Position numbers and translations under genes: made by a program
Part shown: positions 34,110 through 39,784 of the stretch, piece after piece
How the letters are laid out: every line of letters starts with the position of its first letter
Position numbering within the stretch: the first letter of the stretch is position 1
Notes under the pieces: generated by a model
Told to the model about the DNA's origin: nothing
The model's input: the letters and a program-made list of their open reading frames with translations, nothing else
The model's database searches: none
DNA from: an uncultured Thermoleophilia bacterium
GTDB lineage: Bacteria > Actinomycetota > Thermoleophilia > UBA2241
Assembly: GCA_964545565.1 (NCBI GenBank)
Contig: CAZJGT010000001.1
Location: forward strand, 5,401 to 60,165
DNA length: 54,765 nt
Reading direction: 5' to 3'

Positions 34110-35519
34110 GTGAAGCGCGAGTTGCGGTCACGGCTCGCCCTGACGCATCTGGCGATCGCCCTTGTGGCCATCGTCGCCGTCGGCGGCGTGGTCGCGTACG
34201 CCGCCTCGCATCGGTTCGACGGCTACCTGGATCAGGTGCGGAGCGAGCGCGACGGGGAGATCGTCAGGGCGTTGCAGCGCACCTACCAGCCACCGGACGG
34301 CTGGGACGCGACGGCGATCTACGCGCTCAGTCAGGTGGCGACGTTCGACGACGTCGCCGTCGCCGTCTTCTCGACGGAGGGTCAGGTCCTCTTCACCGTC
34401 CAGGGGCGGGCGGACGGTGGCGGCGCATCGCCGGCGCCCGAGGCCGCCCCACGCAGCCGAGCAGATCTGGCCGTGACCAGTTCGGCGATCGTGGTCGACG
34501 GCCGGGCGGTGGCGAGCGCCGAGATCTACGCACCGAGACGCGCTCGCGCCGCCGCTGAGGAAGCCTACCGGAGCGCGCTCACGCGCGATCTGTTGATCGC
34601 CGGCGGCATCGCCGGCGTCCTCGCCGTGCTGATGAGCCTGCTCGTCAGCCGGCGGGTCACCGCTCCGCTCGAGGAGCTCGTCGATGCCGCCGGCGACGTC
34701 GCGGGCGGGAGCCTGGGAGTGCGGGTCGCGCCGCGCGGCGACGGCGAGGTCGCGGCGCTCGCCACCGCCTTGAATGCGATGGCCGACAGGCTGGCCCGCG
34801 AGGAGGAGCGGCGGCGTGACGTGGCTGGTGACCTCTGCCAAGGATTGCGCACGCCGTTGGCGACCATCCAGTCCCGTGTGCAGGAGCTGGAGAGCGGCGC
34901 GCTGCCGGCCACGCCCGAGAACCTACGCGTGATCGGCGCAGAGGTGGAGCGTCTCGGCCGCCTGGTGGACCACCTGCGCAGCCTCGACGAACTCGAGAGC
35001 GAGGATCTCGGCGTCGAGCACGACCCGGTCGATCTGGCAGAGGTCGCAGCCGGGGCTGCGGACCGGCTGCGACCCGCGTTCAGGGCCAAGGGCGTCGAGC
35101 TCGTCGCCGAGATGGGTCCAGGTATCGTCTTCGGCGACCCTGACCGGCTGTCGCAAGTGGTCACCCACCTGCTGGATAACGCGCTCGCGTTCACACCGGC
35201 CGGTGGCCGTGTAGCCGTCACGGTCGACGGCGGTGAAGGCGCTGCCAAGGCATCCGGTGCGCTCGCGGGGCCGGCGGGGACCGCGGTCCGGCTCACCGTG
35301 ACCGATGACGGGCCGGGCGTGGACCCGATCGACCTGCCCTTCGTCTTCGATCGGTTCTACCGGGCGCAGGCGCGGCGGGGCGCCCCGGGGGCCGGGCTCG
35401 GTCTGGCCGTCTGCCGCGCGCTCGTCGAGTCGCAGGGTGGGTCCATCGAGGTCGGTAACGCGCCCGGCGGCGGGGCACGGTTCACCGTCTTGTTGCCCTT
35501 GGCGGGCCCCCGGGGTTGA
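34110..35519 (+). CDS. Orphan sensor histidine kinase-like protein with a degenerate H-box (His replaced by Gln)
   Basis: 2 TM plus HAMP. The DHp segment reads VAGDLCQGLRTPLATIQ where a kinase has (S/A)HELRTPL. The catalytic domain looks intact (HLLDNALAFTP, TDDGPGVD, FDRFYR, GAGLGLAVCRALVE). No response regulator is adjacent. Confidence 0.8.
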   Translation: MKRELRSRLALTHLAIALVAIVAVGGVVAYAASHRFDGYLDQVRSERDGEIVRALQRTYQPPDGWDATAIYALSQVATFDDVAVAVFSTEGQVLFTVQGRADGGGASPAPEAAPRSRADLAVTSSAIVVDGRAVASAEIYAPRRARAAAEEAYRSALTRDLLIAGGIAGVLAVLMSLLVSRRVTAPLEELVDAAGDVAGGSLGVRVAPRGDGEVAALATALNAMADRLAREEERRRDVAGDLCQGLRTPLATIQSRVQELESGALPATPENLRVIGAEVERLGRLVDHLRSLDELESEDLGVEHDPVDLAEVAAGAADRLRPAFRAKGVELVAEMGPGIVFGDPDRLSQVVTHLLDNALAFTPAGGRVAVTVDGGEGAAKASGALAGPAGTAVRLTVTDDGPGVDPIDLPFVFDRFYRAQARRGAPGAGLGLAVCRALVESQGGSIEVGNAPGGGARFTVLLPLAGPRG

Positions 35520-36292
35520 CGCGCGCCGCGATGGCCCCATCGGGAAGCGCGCGCGTCCTCGTCGCCTGTGACCTCGACGGCACTGTGCTCCAGGACGACG
35601 GCTCTCTCGTCCCGGGGATCGCCGGCGTGCTCGCGGAGCTGATCGCCGCCGGTGCGGCCTTCGTCGTCTGCACCGGCCGCCCGCTCTCCACCGCGCGCAC
35701 GGCCACCACCGCACTCCGCGTGGACCCAGCCGCCTTCGCGTGCTATCACGGGGCGCTGGTGGTCAACGGATCCGGCGAGTTCCTCCGGCACCTGCCGCTG
35801 CCGGAGGACGCCGCGCGTGCAGTCGCGGCCGAGGCTCTTCGACAGGGGCTCGGCGTGACCGTCTACGACTACGACGAGCCGCGGGAACTCCTCGCCACAG
35901 GCGATCGTGACGACCAGCCGGGGGACGCCGTCAGCCGCCTCGTCCTCCACGGCGAGACGGCGACCGCGGCATGCCTTCTCGAGGAGCTTCGGGTCGAGTG
36001 GCACGGACGGCTTCGCGTCGAACCCATCCGGCCCGGCTTTCTCGGCGTCTTCGCTCGCGGCGCCGACAAGGGCGACGCGTTGCGGCTGCTGGCCGGGAGC
36101 ATCGGCGTTCCGCCCGGCAGGGTGGCCGCCTGCGGGGACTCGCTCCAGGACGAGTCGCTGCTCGCCGCCGCGGCGGTCCGCATCGCCGTCGGCGACCCTC
36201 CGCATGTCCTTGACCATCTGGAGGGCGTCGTGGTGGTCGCTCGCTCACGGCTCGCGGAGACGTTGCGGGCTCTCGTCCTGCCGTTGTTCTGA
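35516..36292 (+). CDS. Cof-type HAD-IIB phosphatase
   Basis: VLVACDLDGTVL (DxDGT)...VVCTGRP...GADKGDAL...AACGDSLQDESLL. TTG 35516 overlaps the kinase stop (TTGA); ATG 35531 is an alternative start. Confidence 0.8.
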   Translation: MTRAAMAPSGSARVLVACDLDGTVLQDDGSLVPGIAGVLAELIAAGAAFVVCTGRPLSTARTATTALRVDPAAFACYHGALVVNGSGEFLRHLPLPEDAARAVAAEALRQGLGVTVYDYDEPRELLATGDRDDQPGDAVSRLVLHGETATAACLLEELRVEWHGRLRVEPIRPGFLGVFARGADKGDALRLLAGSIGVPPGRVAACGDSLQDESLLAAAAVRIAVGDPPHVLDHLEGVVVVARSRLAETLRALVLPLF

Positions 36293-36298
36293 AGCGGA

Positions 36299-36326
36299 GG
36301 GCGGCGGGGCCTTCGCCCCGCCGCCC
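36299..36326. terminator. Perfect 12-bp GC hairpin between the convergent HAD and trpB2 genes
   Basis: GGGCGGCGGGGC-cttc-GCCCCGCCGCCC. Confidence 0.55.
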
Positions 36327-36362: not shown

Positions 36363-37727
36363 TCAGTCGACCTGCGGCAGCTTGGCGATCGACGCGGCGA
36401 TCGCCGCCTCCGGGTGGTCGTAGTCCTCGAGCTCGCCGCCCAGGTACCTGTCGTACGAGCCGAGATCGAGCAGGCCGTGACCGGTGAGGTTGAAGAGGAT
36501 GTTGCGGCTCACGCCCTCATCCTTGGCCTTGAGCGCCTCATTGACCGCGGCGAGGATCGCGTGAGCGCTCTCGGGAGCCGGAACGATGGCCTCGGTTCGC
36601 GTGAAGAGGGCCGCAGCCTCGAAGACCTTGGTCTGCGGCACGGAGACGGCCTCGAGAAGTCCGAGGTCGTAGACGTGACTGAGCAGCGGCGCCATGCCGT
36701 GGTAGCGCAGGCCCCCGGCGTGGATGCCGGGCGGCATGTAGTCGTGGCCCAGCGTGTACATCTTGAACAGCGGAGTGGTCTGGGCCTCGTCGCCGAAATC
36801 GTAGCGGAATTGCCCCTTCGTGAGTGATGGACAAGCCGTGGGCTCCACGGCGACCAGGCGAGTCTTGGTCTTGCCCGCGAGGTTCTCGCGCAGGAAGGGG
36901 AAAGCCATGCCGCCGAAGCTCGAGCCGCCGCCGACACAGCCGATGACCACGTCGGGGTAGGCGTCGGCGTCCTGCGTCTGGAGGATGCACTCCTCGCCGA
37001 TGATGGTCTGGTGCAGCAGCACGTGGTTGGTGACGCTGCCGAGGGCGTACTTGGAGCCGGGGTGCGTCACCGCGTCCTCGACGGCCTCACTGATGGCGAT
37101 GCCGAGGCTGCCGAGGGAATCCGGATCCTCGGCCAGGACGGCGCGTCCGGCATTGGTCTGGTCGCTTGGGCTGGGGATCACGGTGCCGCCCCACAGCTGC
37201 ATCATGCTGCGCCGGTACGGCTTCTGGTGATAGCTGACCTTGACCATGTAGACCATGCACTCGAGGTCGAACATCTGGCAGGCCATGCTCAGGGCGCTGC
37301 CCCACTGGCCGGCGCCGGTCTCGGTGGCAAGGCGCGTGGTGCCGTCGAGCTTGTTGTAATAGGCCTGTGCGACGGCGGTGTTGCTCTTGTGCGAGCCGGC
37401 AGGGCTGACGCCCTCGTGCTTGAAGAAGATCTTGGCCGGCGTGTCGAGCGCCTTCTCGAGTCCGGTGGCGCGGATCAGCGGCGTCGGCCTCCAGATGCGG
37501 TAGATCTGGTGGATCTCCTCGGGGATCTCGATGGAGCGCTCGGCCGAGACCTCCTGGGCGATGATGCTGGGCGGGAAGATCGGCGACAGGTCGTCGGGAC
37601 CGGCCGGCTGCAAGGTCGCCGGGTTGAGCGGCGGCGGCGGAGGCGCGGGGAGGTCGGGAACGATGTTGTACCAGGTCTTGGGGATCCTCTCCTCGTCAAG
37701 GACGAACTTCTTCTTGTACTCGCTCAT
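36363..37727 (-). CDS. trpB: TrpB2-type tryptophan synthase beta-like PLP enzyme (stand-alone)
   Basis: [27 protein letters not shown]...RPTPLIRA...[24 protein letters not shown] (PLP lysine)...[11 protein letters not shown]. The 454-aa length and N-terminal extension are typical of TrpB2. No trpA is adjacent. SD GAGAGGAGG. Confidence 0.9.
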
Positions 37728-37878
37728 GACCGACCTCCTCTCGGGGTGACGCGCGGATCGGACGGACTCTGTTGATGGGGATGCACTGCTGCTGCGCTCC
37801 GTTTCAGGGGACAGAACGACTGCCGGTGCGGTCTTGGGGTGTGGGCAGGGCCCACGCGGGGTTTCGAGAAGGGGCGCG

Positions 37879-37953
37879 CTAGGCGCGCCAGGCCCAGAGA
37901 CGCCAGTCGGCGCAAGCGATGGTGCTGCGGATGGCGTCGTGGGTCGTCATCAT
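37879..37953 (-). CDS. Candidate leaderless Trp-rich leader peptide [24 protein letters not shown]
   Basis: A 24-codon ORF (the tail of ORF-track entry 37879-38160) starts 7 nt after a TACACT -10 box. Three TGG codons fall among the last eight sense codons. The stop lies in a 7-bp hairpin. It sits 151 nt upstream of trpB2. Confidence 0.55.
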
Positions 37954-37960
37954 GCGCGGC

Positions 37961-37988
37961 AGTGTACCACACCACTGCGACCGCGCAA
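37961..37988 (-). promoter_or_regulatory. Candidate promoter TTGCGC-16 nt-TACACT for the trp leader-trpB2 transcript
   Basis: On the minus strand the -35 is at 37988-37983 and the -10 at 37966-37961. The ATG at 37953 is 7 nt downstream of the -10. Confidence 0.45.
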
Positions 37989-38038
37989 CAGCACGAGGCA
38001 CGGCGGCCGCTACCGAACGCCGCGGGGCAGCGCGGCCG

Positions 38039-39784
38039 TCAACCGATGCCCGCCACCGCCGGCTTGAGTGGCGGACACGTCTCGCGCAGCGGGTACGGTG
38101 AACCCGGCAGCCCGAAGAGGAAGCCTTGGCCGTGGGAGACACCGAGCTCGTGCAGGGCATCGAGCTGCGCCTGGGTCTCGATGCCCTCGGCGATCAGCGT
38201 GATGCCCGCCTCGCGGCAGAACCCCCGCAGAGTCCGCACCAGCTTCTGCTTGACCATGGACTCGTCGAGCTTGCGGATGAGTGAGCGGTCGAGCTTGATG
38301 AAGTCCGGCTCGATCTCGACCATCGTCTGCAGGCCGGCGTAGCCGGCGCCCGCGTCGTCGATGGCGATCCGGAAGCCGTGCGCGCGCAGGCGCCGGACCA
38401 CGTCGCGCATGTAGTCGAAGTCGTCGATGACGCTGTTCTCGGTGAGCTCGATGACCGTCAGTTCTCGCAACTCCGGCGCCATGGCGTCGACGAACTCCTG
38501 CACGAACAGGTCGTCGTGCGACTGGAAGAAGAGCGTCACCGGCTCGGTGTTGATGAAGCGCAGGTAGCGCGCCGGCAGCTTCGCGCTGCCGCGGGCGGCC
38601 ATGAGCCGGCAGAGCCGGTCGAGGTCGGAGACGCGCCCCTCGTCGCGGGCGACGTCGAACAGCGCGTCGGGCCGGTGCAACTCGCTCGCGACCGGCCCGC
38701 GGGCGAGCAGTTCGTAACCCAATACCGCATAGTCGTCGAGGCCGACGATGGGCTGGAAGACGCACGAGACCTGCCTGCCGGTGATGACCTTCTCGAACTC
38801 CTCGCGCAGCCGGTCCTGCTGCTCGCCGCGGTCTTGCTCGATCTCCCTGGTGGCTTGGTTGATCGCCTCCAGCAGGGCGCGCCTGAAGCGCACCTTGGGC
38901 GAGCTCGTCAGGCGCGCACAGCCGACGAAGAGGTCGATCTTCCCCAGCAGCCGGCTCTCCAGGTCGTCTTCGAGGCGGTCGAGCAGCCGTGACTCGAGGC
39001 GCTCCTTGATGGCGAGGAGATCCTTCTGGTCGATGGTCCGGCGTTCGCGAGCCGGTGCCAGGGCGATGAGGAACGCGTTGCCGAGGCTCGAGATGGAGAC
39101 GAGGTCCTCCCCCCGGATGAGCTCGCCCCGGGCGTCCTGCAGCCGTCGGCTGATGAGCCGGAAGACGTCGTCGACGACCTCGAAGCCCTGCAGCGACTCG
39201 AGCGCGTGGACGCCGCCGAGGCTCACGTAGACGAGCCCGAGCTGGCCGTGATCCAGCAGCATGCGCTGCATGCCGACCTGCACGCTCTGCAGCGTGGGCA
39301 GGCCGGTGATCTCGTCGTGATAGATGCTCGCGTCGCGCAGCACGTTCTGGATCGTGTCGACGAGGCGTTCGGAGCGGAACGGCTTGGTGATGTACGCAGA
39401 GGCGCCTGATCGGTTGGCTTCGACCATGTCGGCGAGATCGGTCTTCGCGGTGAGGAAGATGACCGGGATGTCCTTGGTGTAGCCGAACTGGAGCTCGCGG
39501 CAGACCTGGTAGCCGTCCATACCGGGCATCATCACGTCGAGGAGAACGACGTGAGGATGCCGCGTGTAGGCGAGCTCGAGGCCCTTCTCCCCGCTGGTGG
39601 CGGAGAGGACCTCGAACCCCTGTTCGCGCAGCGTAGCGGCGATGGTCTCCACCAGGTCGGCGTCGTCGTCGACCACGAGGATGCGGATGTTCTCGCGCGG
39701 CACGTTCCTCCCCTGGCTGGCTCTGCGCGGGCGCGCCTGCGTGTCAAGCTCCCGCGCACAGGTGCTATCGGCAACGTTCGCCAA
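38039..39784 (-). CDS. Response-regulator receiver + degenerate GGDEF + EAL c-di-GMP phosphodiesterase
   Basis: REC: ILVVDDDADLV...VVLLDVMMPGMDG...KPF. The GGDEF position reads SSLGNAFLIAL (no GG(D/E)EF). EAL domain: FQPIVGL...YELLARG, NTEP, ELTENS, IAIDDAGAGYAGL, DFIKLD, EGIETQAQ, GQGFLFG. Confidence 0.85.
   Translation of the reverse strand: MANVADSTCARELDTQARPRRASQGRNVPRENIRILVVDDDADLVETIAATLREQGFEVLSATSGEKGLELAYTRHPHVVLLDVMMPGMDGYQVCRELQFGYTKDIPVIFLTAKTDLADMVEANRSGASAYITKPFRSERLVDTIQNVLRDASIYHDEITGLPTLQSVQVGMQRMLLDHGQLGLVYVSLGGVHALESLQGFEVVDDVFRLISRRLQDARGELIRGEDLVSISSLGNAFLIALAPARERRTIDQKDLLAIKERLESRLLDRLEDDLESRLLGKIDLFVGCARLTSSPKVRFRRALLEAINQATREIEQDRGEQQDRLREEFEKVITGRQVSCVFQPIVGLDDYAVLGYELLARGPVASELHRPDALFDVARDEGRVSDLDRLCRLMAARGSAKLPARYLRFINTEPVTLFFQSHDDLFVQEFVDAMAPELRELTVIELTENSVIDDFDYMRDVVRRLRAHGFRIAIDDAGAGYAGLQTMVEIEPDFIKLDRSLIRKLDESMVKQKLVRTLRGFCREAGITLIAEGIETQAQLDALHELGVSHGQGFLFGLPGSPYPLRETCPPLKPAVAGIG

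Follow-up and report, generated by a model that had tools for sequence, protein, structure and literature searches.

In E. coli trpL, the leader of the trp operon, helix 1 begins at the Trp codons, and the leader stop lies in the loop of the 1:2 hairpin. The E. coli tna leader works through a ribosome that stalls at the stop codon of tnaC, where the nascent peptide senses free tryptophan; the stalled ribosome blocks an adjacent Rho site, and tna is thus induced by tryptophan. Leaders of the trpL type include those of the Streptomyces and Corynebacterium trp genes, and Seliverstov et al. proposed Rho for actinobacterial cysteine leader peptides that have no terminators (PMC1262725). Mycobacteria carry polycysteine leaderless short open reading frames (sORFs), in which the codon tract pairs directly with the Shine-Dalgarno (SD) region (Canestrari et al. 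2020, bioRxiv 10.1101/834739). M. tuberculosis, which also belongs to the Actinomycetota, has few intrinsic terminators, and conditional termination within its 5' leaders is mainly the work of Rho (bioRxiv 10.1101/2022.06.01.494293). In the literature retrieved, trpB2 was mentioned together with a leader peptide or attenuator only in Seliverstov 2005, where the name 'trpB2A' in C. diphtheriae seems to number paralogues within operons with classical U-tract attenuators.

The locus described here lies within a 54,765-nt stretch of DNA from an uncultured Thermoleophilia bacterium, the whole of which is referred to as the window. On its minus strand, a gene product scored 716.6 bits against NCBIfam NF009057 (cut-off 366) and 630.4 bits against TIGR01415 (cut-off 518.9), but 135.6 bits against canonical TrpB (TIGR00263), below the cut-off of 392.5. 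TrpB2 membership requires a score that exceeds the curated cut-off of NF009057/TIGR01415 but stays under that of TIGR00263, and by this rule the gene downstream of the leader encodes a TrpB2-type enzyme (Table 1). It stands alone, with a response-regulator/EAL gene upstream on the same strand and a convergent HAD hydrolase gene downstream. The hairpin that follows its stop codon is without a U-tract, so that even gene-end hairpins here lack this canonical element; canonical terminators were not enriched in the window (20 vs about 13 expected).

The promoter-like elements, the ORF, the three TGG codons and both hairpins described in the initial annotation are all present upstream of trpB2, where it had placed them on the minus strand. 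The -35-like hexamer matches consensus at only three of six positions and the window promoter was not flagged in a consensus promoter scan. A spacer of 16 nt separates TTGCGC from TACACT, which in turn lies 7 nt from ATGATG. Orthologous -35-like elements include CTTGCGC and CTTGAC, and an extended -10 (TGnTAnnnT) was conserved at a fixed distance in essentially all orthologous leaders, 10 nt before the orthologous ATG in most of them and 7 nt in the window, L162 and L164. For most relatives, this orthologous start corresponds to the second ATG (37950) of the leader ORF. Because the conserved extended -10 sits 7-10 nt upstream of the ATG, transcription is predicted to begin at the start codon or 3 nt upstream, not downstream of the sORF, in agreement with the initial annotation. 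This spacing would place the sORF start at or near the transcript 5' end and, together with the lack of an SD before the leader ORF, fits a leaderless sORF.

Within the leader ORF, the last two TGG codons were invariant in the alignment of 51 sequences and the first was either TGG or CGG. When ORFs of 10-60 codons were taken from all six frames of the window (54.7 kb), the leader ORF was the only one with at least three TGG in its last eight codons, and shuffles gave 0.17 such ORFs. Alone, this uniqueness is just suggestive, with its significance supplied by the comparative evidence. The trpB2 gene begins 151 nt past the leader ORF stop in the window, within the range of 126-154 nt observed in the main clade.

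Table 1. Features of the trpB2 locus, listed in the direction of transcription and numbered by position in the window.
Feature	Positions	Strand	Evidence
-35-like hexamer TTGCGC	37983..37988	-	read directly; TTGnnn at same distance in many orthologues
Extended -10, TGgTACACT (TACACT, 37966-37961)	37961..37969	-	conserved in orthologous leaders
Leader ORF (leaderless by prediction), 24 codons, ending W-R-L-W-A-W-R-A-stop	37879..37953	-	frame conserved
P0, hairpin within sORF, GACGCC (37938-33) / GGCGTC (37904-37899)	37899..37938	-	pairing in relatives
Sensor codons TGG (37905-03, 37896-94, 37890-88)	37888..37905	-	alignment of 51 sequences
P1, 7-bp GC hairpin, GGCGCGC (37889-37883) / GCGCGCC (37879-37873)	37873..37889	-	near-invariance
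Pyrimidine/C-rich, G-poor tract between P1 and P2	37856..37872	-	composition conserved, sequence not
P2, hairpin GTGGGC-CCT-GCCCAC	37841..37855	-	covariation
P3, hairpin, degenerate in window (GACCG...CAGTC)	37818..37833	-	GACCRC/GYGGTC in relatives
Remaining 5' UTR including SD GAGAGGAGG (37742-37734)	37728..37817	-	SD/start region conserved, middle variable
trpB2 (TrpB-like PLP enzyme, 454 aa, monocistronic)	36363..37727	-	NF009057, TIGR01415, PALP domain
12-bp GC hairpin after trpB2 stop, U-poor tail (UCCGCUUCAG)	36299..36326	-	z = -3.9

Comparisons with relatives, all of which rest on uncultured MAG or metagenome sequence, revealed about 100 distinct leaders from uncultured Thermoleophilia that keep the promoter, the ORF, two to three terminal Trp codons and the stop-codon hairpin. 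An sORF ending in W[AL]WRA-stop was found in 50 of the 52 Thermoleophilia genome loci having an upstream region, and the leader sORF also preceded trpB2 in 69 metagenome loci; in all, it is conserved in more than a hundred related uncultured bacteria. In 94 of 95 unique leaders, the promoter-anchored ATG shared the reading frame of the Trp codons, despite 12 different ORF lengths (16-42 codons). The 86 distinct leader peptides each contained two or three Trp residues, essentially confined to the last eight residues (fraction 0.001 elsewhere). Linkage to trpB2 was exclusive: 69 of the 74 matches with enough downstream sequence in a DNA motif scan of metagenomes preceded trpB2 and the other five were chance matches. 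The leader core was conserved even though the flanking EAL protein was only 57-76% identical, and the same leader also preceded trpB2 in a different gene neighbourhood.

The residue between the final two Trp varied (A, L or H), and the stop codon was always UAG in the main clade. Divergent clades retained the sORF and Trp codons, with the sORF ending in WRAARA, WRAPRA, WRALRA or WRASRA followed by UGA, a shift of 9 nt in stop position between clades. The Trp sensor is not indispensable, since one orthologue (L030) has lost the Trp codons and a divergent leader (L164) keeps only one. Conservation of the Trp codons, reading frame and stop-codon hairpin in relatives supports the initial annotation in its reading of a leader of the Trp-attenuation type. 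Neither Rfam nor the literature searched yielded an earlier description of such a leader for a TrpB2-type gene, as that annotation had supposed. The window had no Rfam match at gathering score, nor did 37600-38150 at E <= 10, and no match was obtained for the related loci or for the classical trpB2 attenuators of other lineages.

Hairpins P0-P3 were conserved to differing degrees. P0 was paired in 94% of cells in 63 short-form leaders, compared with 19-51% when slid, and one of its pairs showed compensatory change (AU 53, GC 9). P1 begins with the second base of the last Trp codon; its loop, together with the first base of the 3' arm, holds the leader stop codon. This hairpin was invariant or nearly so, non-coding 3' arm included, and as it does not vary no covariation was obtainable for it. 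In the divergent clades the sORF reads through both P1 arms and stops just past the hairpin. Compensatory changes were detected at two pairs of P2 (CG 41/UA 8 in 51 sequences, CG 77/UA 19 in 98), which is followed by ACCCC without any U, whilst P3 showed changes on both sides at four of six pairs and was followed by GUCCCGUCCCC in all relatives. An unbiased covariation scan recovered only P2, P3 and phylogenetic artefacts (e.g. columns 119-199), with no long-range helix. RNAalifold on the full alignment returned only a small helix in the Trp-codon region (columns 20-23/29-32), part of P1, and P2. The whole leader folded no better than shuffles (z = -1.12), which is uninformative. As the initial annotation had reported, no U-rich tail was seen on the leader strand, where the terminator scan of the window found no terminator-like site.

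Several candidate elements were rejected. P2 is not a repeated genomic element or general terminator motif (4 matches vs 5.7 expected). P1 was discarded as a terminator hairpin on the grounds that a ribosome would cover its 5' arm in both states at the relevant polymerase position; its tail has only two to five U in 9 nt. Two candidate partners for AUGAC at the sORF 5' end, GUCAU at the start of trpB2 and GCGUCAU upstream of the SD, were dismissed, as the sORF-start variants ATGCTG, ATGTCG and CGTGTT do not covary with them. A frameshift into the -1 frame (ORF 37975-37724, ending at the ATGA overlap with trpB2) is contradicted by the spacing, with stop-to-ATG distances of 126-154 nt covering all three residues modulo 3, and by the absence of ATGA in the divergent clades. 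An alternative helix between the Trp codons and the 5' side of P2, noted by eye in the initial annotation, does exist in the window (GGGCCUGGCGCG with CGCGUGGGCCC, 11 bp, one bulge), but its proposed role as a switch was unsupported. Although 91% of cells were paired in the main clade, there was zero compensatory change, the outer three pairs failed in about 8-37% of sequences depending on the pair, and by inspection the helix was not kept in the divergent leaders L160, L162 and L164. It is also much weaker, on a rough stacking estimate by hand, than the two hairpins it would replace. A ribosome stalled on the Trp codons would cover this helix. We do not regard it as the switch and judge it incidental to repeated GCGC content.

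Compared with leaders of the trpL type, the Thermoleophilia leader shares a short ORF upstream of a Trp-pathway gene, two to three UGG codons close to the stop with an Arg codon next, a stop in the loop of the first hairpin, a second GC hairpin beyond it and an expected starvation-ON logic. It differs in having no U-tract after any hairpin, a candidate 2:3 pairing of at best 4-5 bp without covariation, a probably leaderless sORF, a long stop-to-gene spacer, and a single stand-alone trpB2 rather than a trp operon as its target. With the mycobacterial polycysteine attenuators it has in common an actinobacterial, putatively leaderless sORF with regulatory codons clustered at the 3' end, a biosynthetic gene downstream, presumptive ribosome stalling and no intrinsic terminator. 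However, Trp rather than Cys would be sensed, and there is no conserved complementarity between codon tract and SD. The tna leader resembles it in the abutment of the ORF 3' end on a C-rich, G-poor untranslated stretch, the lack of an intrinsic terminator, the long spacer to the structural gene and a tryptophan-related signal. In contrast to tna, the expected signal is uncharged tRNA-Trp and the expected logic is the reverse; the UGG codons to be sensed lie 3-5 codons ahead of the stop, or up to eight in leaders that have a third Trp, such as that of the window, and the leader peptide is not conserved as such.

This combination of features makes it very likely that the Thermoleophilia leader is a ribosome-stalling Trp sensor for trpB2. 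Our preferred reading, to which we assign a probability of roughly 50%, is that this sensor at the 5' end of the trpB2 mRNA is read out by Rho-dependent premature termination. Transcription starting at or 3 nt before the ATG would yield a short ORF translated without a Shine-Dalgarno sequence, whose sole Trp codons are the two or three within the final eight sense codons, the last of them overlapping the 5' arm of the stop-codon-bearing P1. When charged tRNA-Trp is scarce, the ribosome would stall on the Trp codons, occupy the 3' end of the sORF and keep P1 open. When it is plentiful, the ribosome would finish and leave, allowing P0, P1, P2 and P3 all to fold. The classical Trp attenuators and the Trp T-box that precede trpB2 elsewhere suggest, as analogues, that stalling should raise trpB2 expression. 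Termination by Rho, in our view the likeliest read-out step, would occur in the 150-nt untranslated stretch, with a C-rich, G-poor loading region starting at the sORF end. A ribosome parked on the Trp codons would partly cover or split this region, as happens with the stalled ribosome of the tna leader, and a released ribosome would leave it bare.

Past the leader stop, the composition of the RNA would favour attenuation by Rho. In the window leader, the highest C/G ratio over 78 nt was 2.18, within the top 0.2% of all 78-nt windows, and this segment begins at the P1-P2 tract; the ratio averaged 2.22 in orthologues and was 1.6-2.4 in divergent leaders. Further C-rich tracts lie at 37840-37834 and 37814-37807. 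The match to a Rho-loading region is one of composition only, and C>G skew predicts Rho sites only loosely. With the last UGG in its A site, a ribosome should protect the RNA only to about the first bases of the P1 3' arm, so that in the stalled state it would leave most of the C-rich tract uncovered. In those clades where the stop follows P1, it would be further still from the tract. Simple occlusion also leaves unexplained the roles of the conserved P1 and the covarying P2 and P3.

Three-helix attenuation without a U-tract is an unlikely alternative, in which P1 would act as 1:2, the P1 3' arm (GCGCGCC) with a CGCG at the P2 5' arm as 2:3, and P2 or P3 as the 3:4 structure that stops the polymerase. 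The layout copies that of E. coli trpL, in that helix 1 opens with the Trp codons and the 1:2 loop contains the stop, and P2 and P3 are supported by covariation. The CGCG overlapping the P2 5' arm recurs despite a different P2 sequence (L158, L162, L164), and the hairpin at the trpB2 gene end is likewise without a clean U-tract. Nevertheless, the 2:3 pairing of just 4-5 bp showed no compensatory change and was weakened without compensation in nine leaders with the arm GCGCCUC. The best partner of the freed P1 arm was inconsistent between leaders, and constrained folds left P2 intact in the stalled state. The U-free sequence after P2 also counts against this alternative. Mycobacterial RNA polymerase reportedly needs a U-tract in vitro.

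Translational attenuation, whereby an RNA segment dependent on ribosome position would mask the trpB2 SD, is how the closest studied analogue works, a leaderless sORF with regulatory codons at its 3' end (bioRxiv 10.1101/834739). The ermC leader is another example of this type. In the minimum free energy fold of the window, the pyrimidine tract past P1 pairs with GAGAGGAGG, and 81% of cells were paired for this tract-SD interaction on the alignment. The tract was nonetheless rejected as an anti-SD: cognate duplexes were no better than permuted (p = 0.93) or shuffled tracts, and the mean pairing probability was just 0.12-0.21. Partition-function folds gave similar SD unpaired probabilities whatever the ribosome position (0.31 in the free, 0.29 in the stalled and 0.38 in the terminating state), the unbiased covariation scan was without a long-range helix and no conserved sequence close to the SD is complementary to the Trp-codon segment. 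We consider SD masking improbable on this evidence.

We also see little prospect for a read-out through mRNA stability, in which a ribosome halted some 50-110 nt downstream of the 5' end, according to sORF length, would block 5'-to-3' exonucleolytic or endonucleolytic decay. A stalled ribosome stabilises the ermC message in Bacillus in this way. In favour of the idea, Actinomycetota generally carry RNase J and RNase E, the search for an alternative RNA structure was negative and this model needs none, and the stall site is always near the 5' end of the predicted leaderless transcript. On the other side, the strict conservation of the P1 non-coding arm, P2, P3 and the C-rich tracts is unexplained.

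Least credible is a TnaC-like arrest peptide with inverse logic, in which W-x-W-R-A would sense free Trp, block release at UAG and mask the Rho site so that Trp induces trpB2: the conserved C-terminus, the constant UAG of the main clade and a C-rich tract beginning right at the stop codon, as in tna, favour it, but the R and A are imposed by the hairpin, divergent clades continue through the second P1 arm to UGA, the C-terminal residues thus following the RNA hairpin with neither they nor the shifting stop conserved as peptide, the residue between the two Trp varies, and other lineages run trpB2 through starvation-ON devices.

These other-lineage devices (L048-50, L062/63/67/74 and L165) act on the same gene family (NF009057) as the Thermoleophilia leader. 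Melioribacteraceae trpB2 genes have a TTGACA promoter, a MKRTINILNNNWWW... leader and a U-tract terminator, with an antiterminator that forms in folding only under the stall constraint. Spirochaete trpB2 genes have WWW leaders and U-tract terminators, and L165 carries a T-box with a UGG specifier ahead of trpB2-trpS-trpE. The quantity sensed by these devices and, by our reading, by the Thermoleophilia leader is the same, tRNA-Trp charging. Their sequences and architectures are unrelated to the Thermoleophilia leader, and they have U-tract (or short U-run) terminators and clear antiterminators, which it does not. Counting the Thermoleophilia leader, the classical attenuators of Ignavibacteriota and Spirochaetota, and the Trp T-box as three independent devices, we tentatively propose, at slightly less than even odds, that control of stand-alone trpB2 by tRNA-Trp charging arose independently at least three times, and that the Thermoleophilia read-out is neither U-tract termination nor SD masking but Rho antagonism or an undescribed use of P1. 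If true, these independent devices would tie the debated role of TrpB2 to the tryptophan-limitation response.

The role of stand-alone TrpB2 has been debated for two decades, with indole salvage, phosphoserine-dependent Trp synthesis or another function suggested. Merkl 2007 (PMC1854888) explained the position of trpB2 outside the trp operon by the need to regulate the gene individually and by an unidentified extra function. The placement of trpB2 behind three unrelated devices that appear to read tRNA-Trp charging, in four lineages, would be evidence, from regulation, of a greater demand for TrpB2 under tryptophan shortage. With about 100 variants and several clade redesigns, the Thermoleophilia leader represents a putative natural amino-acid-sensing leader peptide without an intrinsic terminator or SD-masking helix, and would be well suited to the study of the read-out of ribosome stalling in Actinomycetota, which are GC-rich and rely on Rho.

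The minus strand of positions 38200-37500 was read directly, and the features that the initial annotation had described upstream of trpB2, including the promoter elements, the Trp-codon-rich leader ORF (sORF) and hairpins P1 and P2, were all present where it had placed them. The 5' arm of P1 begins at the GG of the last Trp codon. Across all frames of the window, the sORF was the only ORF of 10-60 codons with at least three TGG among its last eight codons, compared to 0.17 in shuffled sequences. Folding of the whole leader was not unusually stable (z = -1.12) and Rfam returned no match at this site.

Features of the trpB2 leader, gene and downstream region in the window
Feature	Position	Strand	Remarks
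-35-like TTGCGC	37988-83	-	read directly; 16 nt to TACACT
-10 TACACT	37966-61	-	TGg directly before, giving an extended -10
sORF, 24 residues and stop	37953-37879	-	opened by ATGATG, 7 nt past TACACT
P1, 7-bp hairpin GGCGCGC/GCGCGCC	37889-83 / 37879-73	-	stop codon in loop
P2, hairpin GTGGGC/GCCCAC	37855-41	-	downstream of P1
trpB2 (TrpB2-type enzyme)	37727-36363	-	151 nt downstream of sORF
12-bp GC hairpin GGGCGGCGGGGC-GAAG-GCCCCGCCGCCC	36299-36326	both	between convergent trpB2 and HAD genes; z = -3.9

The encoded enzyme scored 716.6 bits against the TrpB2 profile NF009057 (cut-off 366) and 135.6 against canonical TrpB (cut-off 392). Its gene stands alone, with a response-regulator/EAL gene upstream and a convergent HAD hydrolase gene downstream, and the strong intervening hairpin, with U-poor tails on both strands, is likely a transcript-end structure without a canonical U-tract. 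The downstream neighbour, on the + strand at 35516-36292, is a Cof-type HAD phosphatase gene; 27 related loci have it at that position too, convergent to trpB2 throughout the clade, a curious retention given that some TrpB2 enzymes reportedly use O-phosphoserine.

A protein-anchored scan, using one genome per species, recovered 74 trpB2 loci, the closest of which (83-97% identical) were from uncultured Thermoleophilia MAGs, placing the window in that lineage. The sORF and its Trp codons were retained upstream of these orthologues, with an sORF that starts at ATG and closes with W[A/L]WRA-stop in 50 of the 52 Thermoleophilia loci that had an upstream region, about 126-154 nt from trpB2 (95 nt in L073). 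The two exceptions were L055, in which the motif is present and the sORF frameshifted (L055:2300-2500), and L030, from which the Trp codons are gone. In the latter (L030:2280-2500, Thermoleophilia bin AnMBR.bin210), the promoter remains with a leaderless sORF behind it (MTIIDVRSRRCARPAARRREPRGT), but P1 and P2 have disappeared too, making it a natural loss of the predicted sensor. In L073 (2400-2500), a ~55-nt deletion places an internal ACGGAG-like motif at Shine-Dalgarno (SD) distance from the trpB2 ATG; this deletion and the L055 frameshift could each be either genuine or an artefact of assembly.

When the start codon was anchored on the conserved promoter alone (TGnTAnnnT plus 10 nt), 94 of 95 distinct leaders had an ATG that shares the frame of the Trp codons and of the stop, L055 being the single exception, despite 12 different sORF lengths (16 to 42 codons). 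All 86 distinct leader peptides contained two or three Trp, every one within the last eight residues, and the Trp fraction elsewhere was 0.001. The long forms of 37-42 codons (L001, L005, L010, L022, L025 and others) carry an in-frame insertion of ~54-57 nt mid-sORF, present in about a third of leaders and itself forming a GC-rich hairpin. Gene order (EAL gene, leader, trpB2, HAD) was kept among related loci. Their EAL proteins share only 57-76% identity, a divergence at which neutral intergenic DNA would no longer align. The sORF is a real feature. Of 79 matches to the Trp-codon/hairpin motif in an exact-pattern scan of metagenome contigs, 69 had TrpB2 130-152 nt downstream, five lay at a contig end and five were evident chance matches; this links the leader to trpB2, and the scan turned it up ahead of no other gene.

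More divergent leaders were obtained by using the TrpB2 of a 70%-identical relative (L041) as query and fetching the contigs of eight homologues. In a different neighbourhood (nitrilase/arginase upstream, M28 peptidase downstream), the sORFs of L154-L157 still end in ...TTAWLWRA and place their stop codon within the P1 loop. L158, L160/161, L162/163 and L164 had no stop in the P1 loop; their sORFs read through both arms to a UGA directly past the hairpin, ending ...WLWRAARA, ...WLWRAPRA, ...WWRALRA and ...RRWRASRA. This read-through means that 'R-A' is a consequence of the hairpin sequence (CGC-GCN in each arm) and is no peptide motif, whilst overlap of the last Trp codon with the P1 5' arm was constant across clades. 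Just upstream of the leader promoter, L154 (1140-1230) and L155 (70-190) carry a tandem ~19-nt unit (GCCGCGCGGGCCGGTCCAC), whose copy number differs between these two contigs with identical encoded TrpB2. The window has ATGATG at 37950-37953 where most relatives have ACGATG. Its extra in-frame ATG lies 7 nt past the -10 and coincides with the predicted +1, an arrangement shared with L162 and L164. The family would thus include leaderless leaders proper as well as ones with a 3-nt 5' UTR.

Comparison supported the two hairpins of the initial annotation and two more, P0 and P3, and no other helix. In a 51-sequence alignment P1 was essentially invariant, non-coding arm included, whilst compensatory changes were detected at two pairs of P2 (CG 41/UA 8; CG 77/UA 19 in a 98-sequence alignment), four pairs of the downstream P3 and one of P0 (GACGCC/GGCGUC, inside the sORF, 94% paired). 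An all-against-all covariation scan of the leaders recovered P2 and P3 only, and base-pair probabilities projected on the alignment gave P1, P2 and P3 only in all three states folded (free RNA, ribosome on the Trp codons, ribosome on the stop codon).

Consistent with the initial annotation, no U-rich tail follows any leader-strand hairpin and a terminator scan flagged none there; because there is no U-tract, textbook termination is excluded on sequence grounds. Conservation past P1, even across clade-level redesigns, lies in composition: a G-poor pyrimidine/C-rich tract, a small GC hairpin, then further C-rich RNA. With a best 78-nt C/G ratio of 2.18, the leader ranks in the top 0.2% of stretches of that length across the 54.7 kb; the ratio averages 2.22 in orthologues and is 1.6-2.4 in divergent leaders. 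Canonical terminators were not enriched anywhere in the window. Most conditional termination in M. tuberculosis 5' leaders is due to Rho (bioRxiv 10.1101/2022.06.01.494293), which was long ago proposed for terminator-less actinobacterial Cys leader peptides (PMC1262725). Taken together, composition, lack of canonical terminators and these precedents lead us to favour Rho-dependent attenuation, in which, by analogy with tna, a ribosome parked at the sORF 3' end would relieve termination. A difficulty for this model is that a ribosome stalled there is expected to leave most of the tract past P1 exposed.

A classical 1:2/2:3/3:4 switch ending in a U-less terminator is the strongest alternative, although improbable. 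Translational attenuation is less probable still, since masking of the SD was unsupported: its unpaired probability was near-constant (0.31 in free RNA, 0.29 with the ribosome on the Trp codons, 0.38 on the stop codon) and a further duplex test was also negative. A stabilizing effect of the stalled ribosome on the mRNA seems equally doubtful. A TnaC-like sensor of free Trp is very unlikely, being largely ruled out by the clade comparison, in which 'R-A' follows the hairpin and the stop is shifted past P1.

Outside Thermoleophilia, the 74-locus scan picked up trpB2 in further phyla. In the Ignavibacteriota, at three Melioribacteraceae loci (L048:2300-2500, L049 and L050, including Stygiobacter electus NZ_JARGDL010000015), a TTGACA promoter precedes a leader MKRTINILNNNWWWLSTNTPS-stop and a UUUUUU-tailed hairpin before a monocistronic trpB2. 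With the stall imposed as a folding constraint, the sORF 3' end (ACGCCAUCC) pairs with GGAUGGCG, forming an 8-bp antiterminator (CGCCAUCC/GGAUGGCG) and abolishing the terminator; with the ribosome at the stop codon, the U6 terminator forms. This predicted classical Trp attenuator had no Rfam match. Four Spirochaetia MAG loci (L062, L063, L067 and L074) encode ...YSWWWRN... leaders (e.g. MYSWWWRNCGEAPRSGPR) within some 140-380 nt ahead of the trpB2 start, and behind each leader come one or two U-tract terminators, GC hairpins that end in U7-8; the ORFs downstream at these loci are not trp genes. Ahead of a trpB2-trpS-trpE cluster, L165:1158-1434 (GCA_034432175.1, DAOUCR010000100.1) matched the T-box over its full length at 62.7 bits (E = 2.4e-13), short of the gathering score of 93. 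Its specifier position reads UGG, and the match is followed by a 12-bp hairpin and a short run of U. The trpB2 genes behind all these devices pass the TrpB2 model. No such leader preceded trpB2 in Azoarcus/Aromatoleum, archaeal and several other loci of the scan. trpB2 thus appears to lie under devices switched on by uncharged tRNA-Trp, in at least three unrelated designs, and these attenuators and the T-box provide a prior that the Thermoleophilia leader, by analogy, would also be starvation-ON.

As a sensor, this is a leader peptide of the standard kind, close to that of E. coli trpL down to its particulars (W-W/W-x-W, Arg, then stop in the loop of the first hairpin) although lacking its U-tract terminator. 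The leaderless arrangement appears to match that of mycobacterial polycysteine sORFs (bioRxiv 10.1101/834739), although the pairing of codon tract with SD was not supported here. The leader differs from known ones in its target, a stand-alone TrpB2, and in its expression platform. As the initial annotation had supposed, no Rfam family or paper was found for a Trp leader, attenuator or T-box before a TrpB2-type gene, although an earlier mention is possible, the older trp-operon literature being thinly covered. The finding bears on TrpB2 function, and the Thermoleophilia trpB2 leader represents a well-sampled, probable terminator-less attenuator.
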